Shown: positions 56,601 through 64,000 of the stretch, one piece after another
Position numbering within the stretch: position 1 is the first letter of the stretch
How the letters are laid out: every line of letters begins with the position of its first letter
Origin: Bdellovibrionota bacterium
GTDB taxonomy: Bacteria; Bdellovibrionota; UBA1018; CAIPTA01; JAALKR01
Reading direction: 5' to 3'
DNA: 64,000 bases
Assembly (NCBI GenBank): GCA_965207455.1
Contig: CBDBMJ010000001.1
Coordinates: forward strand, 1,632,001-1,696,000
Position numbers: made by a program

Positions 56601-59600
56601 TGATTATCTACATTTTTTTGAGTAATACCAATAAAAGAAATACCCCACTGCTCACTAAAGTAGTATGTTCCCCTACCCTGATATATGGTGTTATCAAGAA
56701 ATATTTGTTTAAAATTTCTCCCCAAACTGGCAGCAAATTCAAATTTTCCTTCTTTTAAATATTTTCGGTTTTGGATAACATAGATTTTTTTATCCGGGTC
56801 TAACCAAGAAAAATCATACTCCGCTAAAGAAGAACGCCCAAAAACACTTGGCGTAATTACCAGTGAAGAAAGTAGTAAAATAAGAAGTATACGCATACTA
56901 TGCCTCCTGTTAGCTTCGCCCATGTTTCCCCCCCAATAATCACGGAAACATAAAGACCAGTGATTAAGAAAAGTTTAACATAAAATTGCGTCCAGTTGGG
57001 CAATAGGATATGTATGGACAGTCGGTACACGCTTGCGTGTCTTTAGGAAATTGCCTGAGGGAAGGGGCTTTTCGTTGCTCCCTAATGGCTTGTTGCTCTT
57101 CTATGCCCCATTCCTTGGATCTTGAGATACTCTCCAATGTCCCCGTCAATAAATTTACTATATAACCCTGAATGGAAACATTTTTCTCTTTTTGTTGCTC
57201 TAAATATTGAGCAAGAGCTTCCATATAACCCTGCATTTGAAAGGTATACTGGCGACTCGCTTTTTGCTCTGTAACTTTATAATCAGCAATAATCCACTCC
57301 TTAGGAGACAGGCGCACGATCCTGTCCACCGTGCCCTTAACCTGCTGGCTACCCCTCTTCCATAAAAAGGGGATTTCTGGAAAGGAATCATATTGGGGAG
57401 AGAAAAGCTTTCTCCCTAATTCGGAGTCCATAAATTGGGTGAGGAGAACAATATCAAGGCGAATGAGCTCTTTTAGTTCGGGTATACAGGGAATCCCCTG
57501 ACTTCCATAGGATTGCTCCAACCACTGTTCCCAAGTTTTCTCGCAAGGCTTAGTCGTTTGCTCTAAAACCTTGTGAATGGCAATACCTCGTATCTTGTTC
57601 GTAACACCTAGAATTTTAAATATACCACTCAGGGAAGGGCTTTGTTTGGGCACACTTGCTTCCCAAAAGCTTAGGGCTTTGTGGCTCCAGCCCTGAATAA
57701 ATTTCAAACGATGAAATTCTGGACAAAAAATGTATGAAGCTAGCTCAGTGGTGGTATACGCTTCAAACGTGGGAGGAGCTTCTAGTATGGGTTCTTCTGT
57801 AATTTCATGATCGAGTGTTTCTCTTGAAAAAGAAAGTTTCTCTTTTAAAAATTCTTCGGCAGGAATTTTTCTTGCTGAATCTTTAAAGTCGGTTCCGTGT
57901 AGCCAAGCACTCCATGAATCTTTTGTTTTCCCTGCCTTCGAAGGAGGCGGCAGTGGAGGGAGAATACAATACAGCTCTTTCTCCGCTCTTGTGGTTGCCA
58001 CATAAAGCAGACGTTTTTTCTCTGCAATATCTCGCTCCTTAATTTCAGCACCCAAATTTTTATACGACTCAGGCATGGAAAATTCTCCACCATGCTCCCT
58101 CACCTTTACAGCAAGAGCAACACCCGGCTCATAGCGAACAATAGAGGATTCCATGCGGATGCTTGTGTCTAAATCGGGCAAAATAGTGATAGGAAACTCC
58201 AAGCCCTTGGCACCATGAATGGTGAAAATCTGTACCGCATCACCCATGCCAGTGATCTCTGGAATCGTACTCTCCCTTTGAGCATCATCTTCCCTACCCC
58301 ATCCCGTGTATGAACTGATTTGCTCCAAAAGTTTGGAGGGGGAGGATGTGTTTTTTTCTAAATTCTCTATCAGAGAAATTAATTTTTCTACCTGGGAGCG
58401 GTGGTTAAAATATTCCATTTGAGGATACTTTTTATAGGCAATTTGTAAAATAGTGGAAGGCTTTTCATATAAGGATTTTTGTTGCAATTCAAAAAGCCAA
58501 GGCTGTATTTCTTTTAGCACTTCCCATGGCGGACGCTTAATGTGGGAATGAATCTCTGTAGCATTAAGCTGGCACCAGGGAGATCGCAGGAGAGCTAGAA
58601 AGGCTAGGGTATTGCTGGGAGAGTACAGAACGCGAAGAAGCGAAATACCATCAATAATACTTTGTCGATGAAATAGGGAGCCTTGACTTCCCATAACGAA
58701 CGGAATGTTTTCTTTTTCCAAAGCCTTCGTATAGGCTTCATTTCCCTTGAGCCGCTGAAAAAGAATCGCAATGGAAGCTAAATTTTTACCTTGAGCATGC
58801 AATTTTTTTATTAGTTTACATAAAATTTCCCCTTCTTTTTCTTTCTTTTCTTGGGCATTACCTCCCTCATAAGTGAGCAGGTATACGGGGTCTAAGGGCT
58901 TATGGTGGGCAGATATTTCTGATGCCTGAGCCTCAAATTTTTTTTCTTCGTTCTCTGATGAAAATATGGATTTGCAAAGAATATTTCCAAAAGACACAAT
59001 ATTTTCTTGGCTTCGATAATTGGTATTCAAGGAACGCACAATACCTTTCTGGAGAGCTGTTTTTTTGAGATTTTGGAATACACTCACATCAGCAGCACGA
59101 AAACGATAAATAGATTGCTTGGCATCTCCAACCACAAAAATATTTTTTAGACCGGGCTGGGCAATGGACTCCAATAGACTCCGCTGTACAGAGTTGGTGT
59201 CCTGAAACTCATCCACCAGTATGGATTTATATTTTTTTTGATAGAAATTTCTACATTCAATATTTTTTAGACAATTATGGGCCAGACGCTCCAGATCGTT
59301 TTTATCCATACGAGCAGGTTTTGTTTTTAACTGATCGAAGATTCTGCAGAATTCATCAAACAGTAGGAGTATATTATTTATAATACTTTTGTGTTCTGAC
59401 TCTATCTCAGAGGATAGGTCATGGATCTTTCGATCAAAATCCAGTAAAGATCGTTTTTCCAGTAAATTACGTAAAATATCCTCTAGATTTTTTCGAGAGT
59501 AATGGGCTTTTGTGAGTGGAGTGAGGGTGTGGGAAAGTTCTGGCTGAGTGAAAAGTTCCACAATGGCTTCTTCTCGTAGATTTCTTTCCTCCGTTTCACT

Positions 59601-62600: not shown

Positions 62601-64000
62601 AATCCTTTTTCCAAACAGTATGGGATCTTTTAATAATTTTTGATGGATATAGTGACTGCCGGCAGGTCCAATATGAGGACCAAGGCAAAGAGGTGCGTTC
62701 CTCTTTTCCAAAGTAGCGTGCTCATCCATAAAAACCCGCGCTTCTTGAAAAGCAACGGACCAATCCGCACCCGCAGGGAAAATATGAAGTCCCGGTTCTT
62801 TTTTAACTGTTGCGCTCATAAAGAAAGTTCGTGTAGCTTGGGGAGCCGGTAATTTTCTCTTCCTCTACCTTGGAAAAATCTCCCATGGGGAACTCAGGGA
62901 AAATAGCATCGCCATTCACTTCCATATCAATAATAGTGAGATAAATACGCTCGGCCCTGGGCAGAGCCTCTCGGTATAATTGCTCTCCTCCTCCGATAAA
63001 AATTTCCTTTTCCGATGGAGAGGAAAGCTCCAATGCCTGGCTAAGGCTGGAAGCTAGTTCACACCCCGGAGCTTCATAATTGGCATTGCGAGTAACGATA
63101 ATATTCCTTCGATGAGGAAGGGGACGACCAATGGACTCGTATGTTTTTCGTCCCCAAATAATCGTATGGTGAAGAGTGATTTTGCGAAATCGCGCTTGCT
63201 CCTCAGGAATATGCCAAGGAATGGTATTTCCCTTTCCAATAGTGCGATTTTTAGCCATGGCTACAATTAAAGAAATCATTATACCTGCTCCATTAGTGTA
63301 AAAGAAATACCTCGAGCCTTCACCAATATTTCGCCCGGATTAGCACTTACTTCTCCACATAAATACGCCTTTCTATTTAATTTTTCAAACGATTGTATTA
63401 TTTCTGAGGCATGGGATGGGCTTACTGCAATCACCATACCCACTCCCATATTAAACGTGGAATATAATTCTTCAGAAGATATTTTAGCGCGCTCACTAAG
63501 GGTTGTGAAAATTCCGGGCAGTGGTGGTAGGGAATGAAATTCATAGCCAACCTTGGTGTTCATCCGTCGTATATTATGAAAGCCAGAGCCGGTGATATGG
63601 GCCAGCCCTTTTATCTTCCCTTTATGGGCTTTTTGAACCTCTACTATTTCTTTTACATAGAGTGTGGTTGGGGTGAGGCACTCCTTCAAAAGCTTTGTCT
63701 CCGATGAGTCGATAAGTTTTCGAACGAGGGAAAAACCGTTGGAGTGCAAACCACTGGAAGGCAAACAAATAAGAGCGTCTTTGGGCTGGATGGTTTTGCC
63801 TGTAATTAATTCTTTTTCCTGTACCTCTCCCACACAAAACCCAGATATGTCGTATTCATTTTTAGGAAAGCAATTGGGATGCTCTGCTGTTTCACCACCA
63901 ATAAGTGCCATGCCCGTGTCCAGGCACCCCTGACTAATCCCTTTTATAATATCCGTTTGGATGGGTATATCTAACGACTCACAAAGAATATAATCTAAAA

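Follow-up and report, generated by a model that had tools for sequence, protein, structure and literature searches.

Does the gene at positions 56964..62819 (minus strand, stop codon included) of the analysed window, a stretch of 64,000 nucleotides from the genome of a Bdellovibrionota bacterium, encode both subunits of an AddAB-type helicase-nuclease in one chain? In textbook accounts, broken bacterial DNA is made ready for RecA by AddAB and RecBCD, and to our knowledge all studied forms of these machines are multi-subunit. The survey's finding on this locus was a head-to-tail fusion of AddB and then AddA. Our analysis bears this out: the N-terminal half's fold points to AddB, both the sequence and the fold of the C-terminal half point to AddA, and the order is that of the split genes in sister orders. 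We conclude that the gene very probably encodes a predicted single-chain AddAB-type enzyme that resects the ends of double-strand breaks.

The window corresponds to C1:1632001-1696000. The ORF list and translation give a single frame (P0001, g01570) with an ATG start, no internal stops and a length of 1951 aa. The Pfam family PDDEXK_1 is matched in two stretches, one at residues 642-923 (E 3.9e-40) and the other at residues 1743-1941 (window 56997-57593, G000:C1:1688997-1689593). The UvrD-helicase domain covers residues 961-1254 (E 2.1e-47) and UvrD_C begins at residue 1263 (E 1.1e-33), with UvrD_C_2 at 1596-1617 and AAA_19 also matched in this part, whereas residues 1-640 match no Pfam family at E <= 1. 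The length of the chain, the order of its domains and the lack of a Pfam family in the first 640 residues are thus as previously described. Weak matches to Cas4 were obtained (Pfam 0.012, NCBIfam 7.1e-9), and the best NCBIfam match is addA_Gpos (7e-66). The equivalog cut-offs were reached neither for this model (222.9 vs 707.65 bits) nor for addA_alphas (154.8 vs 860.75), addB_alphas (45.2 vs 486.5) or rexB (34.4 vs 718.35). By these sequence scores the protein counts as a distant AddAB-type member that falls outside the curated AddA, AddB and RexB subfamilies of NCBIfam.

The identity of the N-terminal 640 residues was the point that the survey had set for checking, and when residues 1-940 are modelled with AlphaFold2 (pLDDT 83.7, pTM 0.63), the result agrees with the proposed inactive-helicase lobe of AddB. 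The top five Foldseek matches are all AddB chains (3u4q_B, E 7.3e-29), followed by RecC (8.2e-17), AdnA (4.5e-15) and UvrD (2.5e-12). With VIA-align, the model matches B. subtilis AddB from end to end (model 10-930 vs chain 2-1138) at Z 23.4-24.1, with 844-861 residues aligned at 14% identity, as compared to Z 14.8-17.3 for RecC chains and Z 14.8-16.4 for AdnA chains. UvrD, PcrA and Rep match residues 1 to about 620 at Z 17.5-19.5, and the nuclease domains of ACE1, Dna2 and Cas4 match the first nuclease at Z 11.6-13. The overall rmsd of these fold matches is large, about 15-17 Å (about 17 Å for AddB), because the domain orientations differ. Sequence searches gave no comparable signal. A phmmer search of residues 1-940 against the PDB returned nothing at E <= 1, and a profile of seven AddB halves left B. 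subtilis AddB unmatched at E <= 1, matching only the AdnB/AdnA nuclease core (5.5e-5). Likewise, hhalign aligned the N-lobe profile to the N-lobe of a sister-order AddB-like protein with a probability of 2.9% and to that of an AddB-size protein from Phascolarctobacterium with a probability of 0.5%. The likeness to AddB is therefore supported by the predicted fold and by collinearity, the sequence comparisons being non-significant.

Residues 1-620 (60960..62819, minus strand) are thus predicted to form an AddB-type, inactivated SF1 helicase-like lobe, presumed to be the part that scans for Chi. The Walker A pattern [AG]x4GK[ST] is absent from the first 640 aa in 21/21 family sequences, and the conserved stretch at the position of the AddB Walker A reads LLGPxIGxxG. 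A DExx-type motif is also absent from the lobe, as each of the 20 full-length relatives has one DEFQD per protein. In contrast, B. subtilis AddB is described as keeping a Walker A at its N-terminus, which stabilises the Chi complex, and the same source notes that the retention of nucleotide-site residues varies among AddAB complexes (PMC3321194). Because the motif is missing here, Chi handling may differ or there may be none. RecC, which ranks second among the matches to the first half, resembles the N-lobe in being without a nucleotide-binding motif, but unlike RecC, the first half keeps a nuclease that is apparently active, judging from its residues, and carries an Fe-S signature.

This first RecB-family PD-(D/E)XK nuclease, of the AddB "iron staple" type, spans residues 640-927 (60039..60902, minus strand), with D781, D796 and K798 as predicted catalytic residues and the motif Q815...Y819. 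Its putative 4Fe-4S ligands, Cys654 (60858..60860) and Cys913-X2-Cys916-X5-Cys922 (60054..60083), are all invariant in 21/21 sequences, and their C...CX2CX5C spacing is that of the Fe-S cysteines reported for B. subtilis AddB, C801/C1121/C1124/C1130 (PMC3321194). The second RecB-family nuclease, in the AddA position, spans residues 1685-1951 (56967..57767, minus strand). Its predicted catalytic residues are D1832, D1846 and K1848, and these are invariant in the family alignment together with Y1847, Q1861 and Y1865, the last two forming the motif Q1861...Y1865. A four-Cys signature is also invariant in this nuclease (C1699 and C1931-X2-C1934-X5-C1940, the latter at window 57000-57029, minus strand). 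In both nucleases D...D-Y-K...Q-x3-Y and C...CX2CX5C are invariant columns, and two CX2CX5C motifs per protein were found in 20/20 full-length relatives. The nuclease in the AddA position thus has a four-Cys signature of its own, whereas the AddAB paper assigns the Fe-S part to AddB, as an addition relative to the AddA nuclease (PMC3321194).

An AddA-type SF1A motor is predicted for residues 960-1660 (57840..59942, minus strand) from the Pfam matches, the motifs and the fold. Walker A (979-986), DEFQD (1203-1207), motif III (VGDAKQSIYRFR, 1230-1241) and motif VI (1606-1612) are invariant in 9/9 aligned sequences, and in 20/20 full-length relatives Walker A is confined to the AddA half, which also has the single DEFQD. 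A phmmer search of the AddA half against the PDB ranks 3u44_A first (E 2.2e-35). The model of residues 960-1951 (pLDDT 83.5) matches AddA at Z 32.2-33.5 in three entries and at 28.2 in 3u44_A, with 814-830 residues aligned (model 1-939 vs chain 11-1232) at 23-24% identity. UvrD reaches Z 34-36.5, while RecB scores 24.4-28.3 over the full length and AdnB about 25; among helicase-nucleases, AddA, rather than RecB, is the best match to the modelled half. Since the AddB-like lobe lacks a Walker A, the predicted enzyme has one motor and two nucleases.

The two parts are joined by a Pro/Ser-rich linker of about 32 residues (928-959; 59943..60038, minus strand), which is poorly conserved in the alignment and has a pLDDT below 50 in the modelled residues 924-940. 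Among helicase-nucleases, B. subtilis AddAB (PDB 3U44, 3U4Q, 4CEH, 4CEI, 4CEJ) is the best structural match for both halves, with the same modules in the same order within each part and likewise one motor and two nucleases. However, it is a heterodimer rather than a single polypeptide, and the parts of the fused protein, at about 927 and 992 aa, fall short of the AddB and AddA chains, whose numbering runs to about 1138 and 1232.

How widespread is the fusion? The survey had counted nine fused homologues, for which the lengths (1966-2071 aa), query cover (98-100%) and identity (32-34%) hold, but the homologue search lists eight other proteins (P0002-P0009). After these come a fragment of 1262 aa and proteins of AddA size whose query cover is 5-51%. 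A phmmer search with residues 1-940 against 1.84 billion cluster representatives recovered about 20 representatives that are fused and 1933-2089 aa long, and P0015 represents another fused lineage. The N-lobe query matches 10/10 other genomes of the same order in single copy, eight of them with open frames of 1978-2090 aa and two with frames broken at contig ends, and none of 30 genomes from other orders of the class. We also sampled 250 other genomes of the phylum, and here AddA-like matches in frames of at least 1987 aa were confined to the same order, the other AddA-like frames being 365-1096 aa long. The fusion is thus not a one-off event.

In sister orders of the same class the two parts are encoded by separate genes. 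PDDEXK_1 sits in frames shorter than 1000 aa in 5/5 sampled sister-order genomes, and in two genomes (G011, G012) an AddB-size and an AddA-size frame stand close together on the same strand, B before A: 875 aa and 948 aa in G011:C4, with a 228-aa ORF between them, and 793 aa and 871 aa in G012:C93. When aligned with the fused protein, the two proteins of G011 are collinear with its halves. For such a split pair, the AddA-like protein can be aligned to residues 960-1679 at 27% identity (E 5e-55) and to residues 1824-1940, a stretch that includes the C-terminal CX2CX5C, and the nuclease of the AddB-like protein aligns over residues 630-929 (24%, E 1e-17), whereas the N-lobes are too diverged from that of the fused protein for a significant sequence match. 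Unrelated bacteria also have B-then-A gene pairs, two of three of which overlap or are 3 nt apart. In other bacteria addB and addA stand in this order and often overlap. We propose that the fusion most likely arose when the stop codon that separated two neighbouring genes, addB and addA, was lost.

The surroundings of the gene are stable. The dihydrofolate reductase gene folA lies directly upstream (62803..63279, minus strand; Pfam DHFR_1 1.6e-51) and shares 17 nt at its 3' end with the start of the fused gene; upstream of folA is purM (63279 to the end of the window). Downstream are genes for proteins of 247 aa and 514 aa and for a TPR protein of 1213 aa (51074..56923, minus strand). In 5/5 relatives purM is upstream of the fused gene and all three downstream neighbours are kept, in the order purM-(folA)-gene-247aa-514aa-TPR; we regard the latter three as syntenic context and make no claim that they are partners. 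The fused gene belongs to the core genes of one order of Bdellovibrionota-like bacteria and is vertically inherited there. Our search of the literature found no single-chain AddB-AddA fusion in print.

The survey had also presented this as the only such enzyme in the genome, which holds for six-frame Pfam and NCBIfam searches of an assembly that is 94.73% complete. In these searches PDDEXK_1 occurs twice, both times inside the fused frame, UvrD-helicase occurs only there and in one 769-aa frame, RecC (PF04257) has no matches and the only match to RecD (TIGR01447), in a PIF1-like gene, has 31.3 bits and stays below the cut-off of 310. A second end-processing enzyme could still lie in the missing part of the genome. 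RecA and RecJ are both encoded in the genome.

We considered other explanations for the long frame and its function. Overlapping addB-addA pairs are common, so a single-base error in sequencing or assembly could join two adjacent genes into an artefactual frame. We give hardly any credence to this, given that the fused frame recurs in eight other genomes of the order and about 20 clusters from independent assemblies, and that the first CX2CX5C and the Walker A are 65-81 residues apart in all 20 full-length relatives. Furthermore, in a public run assembled by others, 56800-63000 lies within a single contig that shows no insertions or deletions, the sole difference being a synonymous T>C at 59463 (Leu1119); as the run possibly derives from the source sample of the window, this is not independent support. 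Another idea is that the N-lobe is a second active ATPase, which would make the protein a single-chain version of the dual-motor, dual-nuclease mycobacterial AdnAB (PDB 6PPJ, 6PPR, 6PPU, 7SJR, 9NP6). Both AdnAB subunits combine an SF1 fold with a C-terminal RecB-type nuclease, as do the two halves here, AdnA is reported to bind an Fe4S4 cluster as AddB does (PMC12094033), AdnA chains do match the first half, and the AddB-half profile finds the AdnB/AdnA nuclease cores by sequence, if weakly. However, AdnA is described as retaining Walker A and B (PMC3321194), neither of which is present in the N-lobe, where DExx-type motifs are also lacking and Walker A is missing from every family sequence. 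AddB moreover surpasses AdnA in the structural comparisons, with Z 24 as against 16 and a Foldseek E of 7e-29 as against 4.5e-15, the second half also scores lower against AdnB than against AddA, and AdnAB is itself a heterodimer. A second motor is accordingly very improbable.

A role mainly in the destruction of foreign linear DNA, with break repair as a secondary function, is somewhat less far-fetched but still unlikely. Taken by itself, the AddA half shows the UvrD-type helicase and four-Cys, Cas4-like nuclease of the UvrD-Cas4-like fusions, described as the largest branch of pfam12705, with helicase domains that form one clade and with ties to defence contexts (Hudaiberdiev et al., 2017, PMC5704561), and the weak Cas4 matches favour such a relationship. 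Yet these fusions are described as standing alone, many of them in restriction-modification or Dcm/Vsr contexts (PMC5704561), whereas the module here follows an AddB-type module in the same chain and its context is one of housekeeping, with purM and folA upstream, the same three genes downstream in all five relatives and no restriction, methylase or other defence genes adjoining it. All ten other genomes of the order have the gene in single copy, and in its own genome we detected no further end-processing enzyme of the RecB family. AddAB and RecBCD degrade foreign DNA too, and the defence and repair roles are therefore not mutually exclusive.

If the preferred reading of a single-chain AddAB-type enzyme is correct, its action may be envisaged along the lines described for B. 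subtilis AddAB (PMC3321194). The enzyme would bind a blunt or nearly blunt DNA end, and its sole AddA-type motor would pull the 3'-ended strand in the 3'-to-5' direction and thereby unwind the duplex. The AddB-like lobe would scan the passing 3' strand for a Chi-like sequence before this strand reaches the nuclease in the AddA position, while the nuclease in the AddB position would cut the 5' strand. Upon Chi recognition the 3' strand would be spared, leaving a 3' tail for RecA. The octamer TGTTGGGG is strongly skewed towards the leading strand (130 vs 26 copies). A more speculative hypothesis, which we consider doubtful, is that the protein is a Chi-regulated machine whose two nucleases both carry a 4Fe-4S "iron staple" and whose scanner resembles RecC in working independently of nucleotide, with TGTTGGGG as the cognate Chi. 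If so, this would be the first Chi sequence for the Bdellovibrionota, and a one-gene system with the motor, the scanner and both nucleases fixed at 1:1 would be at hand for structural and single-molecule work.

The fused gene is a variation on the well-known AddAB machine, and its product is expected to work by the same mechanism, so that what it offers is of practical and comparative, rather than conceptual, value. A one-gene construct with fixed stoichiometry would be useful for expression, cryo-EM and single-molecule experiments. The protein also joins features that are separate in the prototypes, namely a scanner that, like RecC, has no nucleotide site, and nucleases that both bear Fe-S signatures. 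As a natural single chain, it indicates that the intertwined architecture of AddA and AddB tolerates a covalent B-to-A link about 32 residues long. In the little-studied order of Bdellovibrionota-like bacteria in which it is a core gene, the fused enzyme appears to be the only helicase-nuclease for end resection.

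The gene at window 56964..62819 (reverse strand) encodes a real, conserved and apparently unpublished single-chain AddAB. It forms a single frame of 1951 aa that opens with ATG and contains no internal stop, as seen in the ORF list and the translation, and its GC content of 0.38-0.44 does not differ from that of the flanks. A contig assembled by others from a public DNA-type run, which may derive from the source sample of this genome, spans 56800-63000 in one piece with 0 insertions or deletions and one synonymous difference. The difference lies at window 59463, where the window has T and the public-run contig has C; on the coding strand this turns TTA into TTG, and Leu1119 is kept. 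Our Pfam search returned the same domain coordinates as the survey's finding, with PDDEXK_1 in two stretches at residues 642-923 (E 3.9e-40) and 1743-1941, UvrD-helicase at 961-1254 (2.1e-47), UvrD_C from residue 1263 and UvrD_C_2 at 1596-1617. The first 640 residues had been described as lacking a Pfam match, and no family was recovered there even at E <= 1. The junction between the halves (residues 928-959) is rich in Pro and Ser, is modeled with low confidence and shows little conservation, and the spacing from the first CX2CX5C motif to Walker A remains between 65 and 81 residues across 20 relatives.

The C-terminal half is AddA-like in both sequence and predicted fold. The best solved structure by sequence was AddA of B. 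subtilis (3u44_A, E 2.2e-35), with PcrA, UvrD, RecB and AdnB ranking lower, and the top NCBIfam model was addA_Gpos (7e-66, under its cut-off). In an AlphaFold2 model of residues 960-1951, built from a 25-row alignment (pLDDT 83.5, pTM 0.62), the motor aligned with UvrD over 535-570 residues at Z 34-36.5. The best match among the helicase-nucleases was AddA, for which three entries gave Z 32.2-33.5 and 3u44_A gave 28.2, with 814-830 residues aligned between model positions 1-939 and chain positions 11-1232; RecB reached Z 24.4-28.3 over its full length and AdnB about 25. All 9 aligned family members show no variation in Walker A (979-986), DEFQD (1203-1207), motif III or motif VI.

For the N-terminal half, the survey had left open whether the first 640 residues represent the inactive-helicase lobe of AddB, and in the predicted model AddB is indeed the best fold match. 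When residues 1-940 were modeled from a 21-row alignment (pLDDT 83.7, pTM 0.63), the five top Foldseek hits (E 7.3e-29 to 7.2e-27) were AddB chains from the five AddAB entries of B. subtilis, followed at lower ranks by RecC (8.2e-17), AdnA (4.5e-15) and UvrD (2.5e-12). VIA-align gave Z 23.4-24.1 for AddB, where 844-861 residues could be aligned between model positions 10-930 and chain positions 2-1138, compared with 14.8-17.3 for RecC and 14.8-16.4 for AdnA; the overall rmsd values are high (about 17 A), as the chains comprise several domains. UvrD, PcrA and Rep matched model residues 1 to about 620 at Z 17.5-19.5, and this region is therefore predicted to adopt an SF1 helicase fold that has lost its helicase motifs. 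A Walker A pattern was found in the first 640 residues of 0 of 21 sequences, and each of 20 full-length proteins carries just one DEFQD. Residues 640-930 matched the nuclease domains of ACE1, Dna2 and Cas4 at Z 11.6-13.

None of the sequence methods used linked the N-terminal lobe to AddB. A phmmer search of the PDB with residues 1-940 gave no match at E <= 1, and a profile of seven AddB halves matched only the nuclease cores of AdnB and AdnA. In hhalign, a profile of the lobe showed no significant similarity to the corresponding lobe of an AddB-like protein from a sister order (probability 2.9%, E 0.016) or of an AddB-size protein from Phascolarctobacterium (probability 0.5%, E 0.13). Judged by predicted structure, collinearity and context, we regard the N-terminal half as AddB-like.

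Both nuclease domains carry the invariant catalytic pattern GxxDRxD...DYK...QxxxY (D781, D796 and K798; D1832, D1846 and K1848), as well as an invariant distant Cys followed by CX2CX5C (C654/C913/C916/C922 and C1699/C1931/C1934/C1940). Two CX2CX5C motifs per protein were counted in 20 of 20 full-length relatives. The first set is spaced like the 4Fe-4S ligands C801/C1121/C1124/C1130 of B. subtilis AddB, as given in the portion of the AddAB structure paper on which we draw (PMC3321194), and Fe4S4 is bound by AddB and AdnA according to a passage in a second source (PMC12094033). The same portion of the structure paper describes the part that carries the cluster as something AddB has gained in comparison with the AddA nuclease, so that a four-Cys signature at the AddA position, set against AddA as described there, distinguishes the fused protein from the solved prototype (PMC3321194). 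A search of the PDB with the C-terminal nuclease alone (278 aa, phmmer) gave no relevant match. The AddA-like proteins that sister orders encode in separate genes share the signature at the AddA position, and so do three AddA-size proteins that are more distant; across alignment A4, C740 does not vary, and conservation of the three C-terminal Cys is 90% or higher. The AddA half with its four Cys also matches the UvrD-Cas4-like architecture outlined in part of an earlier article (Hudaiberdiev et al., 2017; PMC5704561).

A full-length word-indexed search yielded 74 proteins at E <= 0.001 from 7999 scored candidates. Nine other full-length relatives had been reported by the survey; their sizes (1966-2071 aa), query cover (98-100%) and identity (32-34%) stand, and the number found here is eight (P0002-P0009), the remaining homologs being one 1262-aa fragment and AddA-size proteins. 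A phmmer search of 1.84 billion representatives with residues 1-940 gave 22 matches at E <= 1e-30, of which some 20 are fused proteins (1933-2089 aa). The next tier consists of AddB-size proteins of roughly 800-1050 aa whose C-terminal ends match only residues ~630-925, and in a few of these the match reaches back to residue ~420-490. The top cluster in an Atlas search had a length of 1962 aa and 50 members. A pattern search of genome contigs with generic helicase motifs returned mostly ordinary UvrD, AddA and RecB loci and no close fused relative. There are also fused forms other than the family of this order, such as P0015 (2079 aa, 26% identity), in which an AddB-type nuclease precedes a UvrD helicase and a single PDDEXK_1 stretch is found at E <= 1e-5. 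No description of an AddB-AddA fusion was found in the literature searched, where six exact phrases occurred in 0 papers and which did not extend to Cromie's 2009 treatment of RecBCD and AddAB phylogeny (J Bacteriol), the likeliest place for such a remark.

The reading of the protein as AddB followed by AddA in one chain gains from both the fold matches of its halves and the split gene pairs of sister orders. With residues 1-640 as the query, matches were obtained in 10 of 10 other genomes of the order, in open frames of 1978-2090 aa in eight and in frames broken at contig ends in two, and 30 genomes of the class that belong to other orders gave 0 matches. The AddA half matched 137 of 251 genomes at E <= 1e-25 when 250 further genomes of the phylum were searched alongside this one. 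Matching frames of at least 1987 aa were confined to the same order, all others being 365-1096 aa, and E-values were 1e-117 to 1e-186 inside the order and 1e-66 or weaker outside. From this distribution and the gaps in E-value we infer a single origin of the fusion inside the order.

PDDEXK_1 lies in frames of less than 1000 aa in 5 of 5 genomes sampled from sister orders. In two of them, G011 and G012, AddB-size and AddA-size frames are near each other on one strand with B before A (875 aa, a 228-aa ORF and 948 aa in G011; 793 aa then 871 aa in G012). The protein pair of G011 can be aligned collinearly, each member with one half of the fused chain, and gives the same weak family signals. The ORF between its addB-like and addA-like genes (L105:5176-5862, forward strand, on G011:C4) has no NCBIfam match. 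B-then-A gene pairs also occur at three loci in unrelated bacteria (L005, L006 and L058); in two of the three, the stop of the first gene overlaps the start of the second or lies 3 nt from it. The loss of one stop codon would suffice to create a fusion.

Upstream of the fused gene are purM and folA, the latter sharing 17 nt with it, and downstream come genes for proteins of 247 aa and 514 aa and for a TPR protein of 1213 aa. All 5 relatives examined have the same order from purM through the fused gene and the 247-aa and 514-aa genes to the TPR gene, only the one from the same family has folA at the locus, and no defence genes flank the fused gene. The conserved downstream block (window 48818-56923, reverse strand), in which the 247-aa and 514-aa proteins lack Pfam matches, may be a gene cluster linked to the envelope or to motility. 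Further downstream is a 654-aa FHA-domain protein for which the retrieved loci showed no synteny. At 45400-47058 and 47055-48707 (both reverse) are tandem paralogs of 552 and 550 aa, both with N-terminal hydrophobic leaders and an HEAGH motif of the HExxH type; a Pfam scan of one of them gave no family at 1e-5, and the two may be secreted metalloproteases. Elsewhere in the window we noted two genes of transposase or integrase type, one with DDE_Tnp_1 (35072-36637, forward; 2.2e-13) and the other matching the rve integrase core weakly (43526-44716, forward; 6e-6). Between them are a subtilase (36756-40100) and, at 40079-43339, a 1086-aa protein that matched no Pfam family. No Pfam family matched a 966-aa ORF (18998-21898, forward) at E <= 1e-5. 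The named relatives of the window's PEPCK at 54-62% identity carry the labels Bdellovibrionales, Bdellovibrionaceae, Pseudobdellovibrionaceae or Bacteriovoracaceae, and on these names the genome is placed within Bdellovibrionota or close to it.

The genome (2.38 Mb in 3 contigs, 94.73% complete) encodes RecA and RecJ and just one UvrD-type helicase besides the fused gene. As the survey had proposed, the fused protein is the only such enzyme found in this 94.73% complete assembly, where we detected no RecC, no RecD above the cut-off and no further PDDEXK_1. The sole match to the RecD model was weak (31 bits, far under the cut-off) and came from a 418-aa PIF1-like SF1B helicase (window 5736-6992, reverse; Pfam PIF1 1.2e-30, AAA_30).

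By analogy with B. subtilis AddAB, as treated in the portion of the structure paper drawn on here (PMC3321194), the AddA-type motor would move 3'-to-5' on the 3'-ended strand and unwind DNA from its end. The 3' strand would pass the AddB-like lobe before reaching the nuclease at the AddA position, and the nuclease at the AddB position would cut the 5' strand beside its Fe-S loop. Binding of a Chi-like sequence by the lobe would then protect the 3' strand, leaving it available for the loading of RecA. The scanner lobe resembles RecC in having no nucleotide site, and the ATP-stabilised Chi complex described for B. subtilis in that portion of the paper should therefore not apply (PMC3321194). As a lead, the most strand-skewed octamer of the genome (contigs C1 and C3) is TGTTGGGG, with 130 leading and 26 lagging occurrences and an observed/expected ratio of 1.45, on replichores drawn from cumulative GC skew with the terminus near C1:730000. 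Its relatives TGCTGGGG (139 vs. 52) and TGTTGGG (292 vs. 112) are skewed likewise, and TGTTGGGG is a candidate polar motif of the Chi-like or KOPS-like type.

Our findings describe a single-chain AddAB whose sequence features are a double iron-staple signature and a scanner without Walker A. The enzyme is expected, by analogy, to work like AddAB, and as a single chain it would be of use to structural and single-molecule work.
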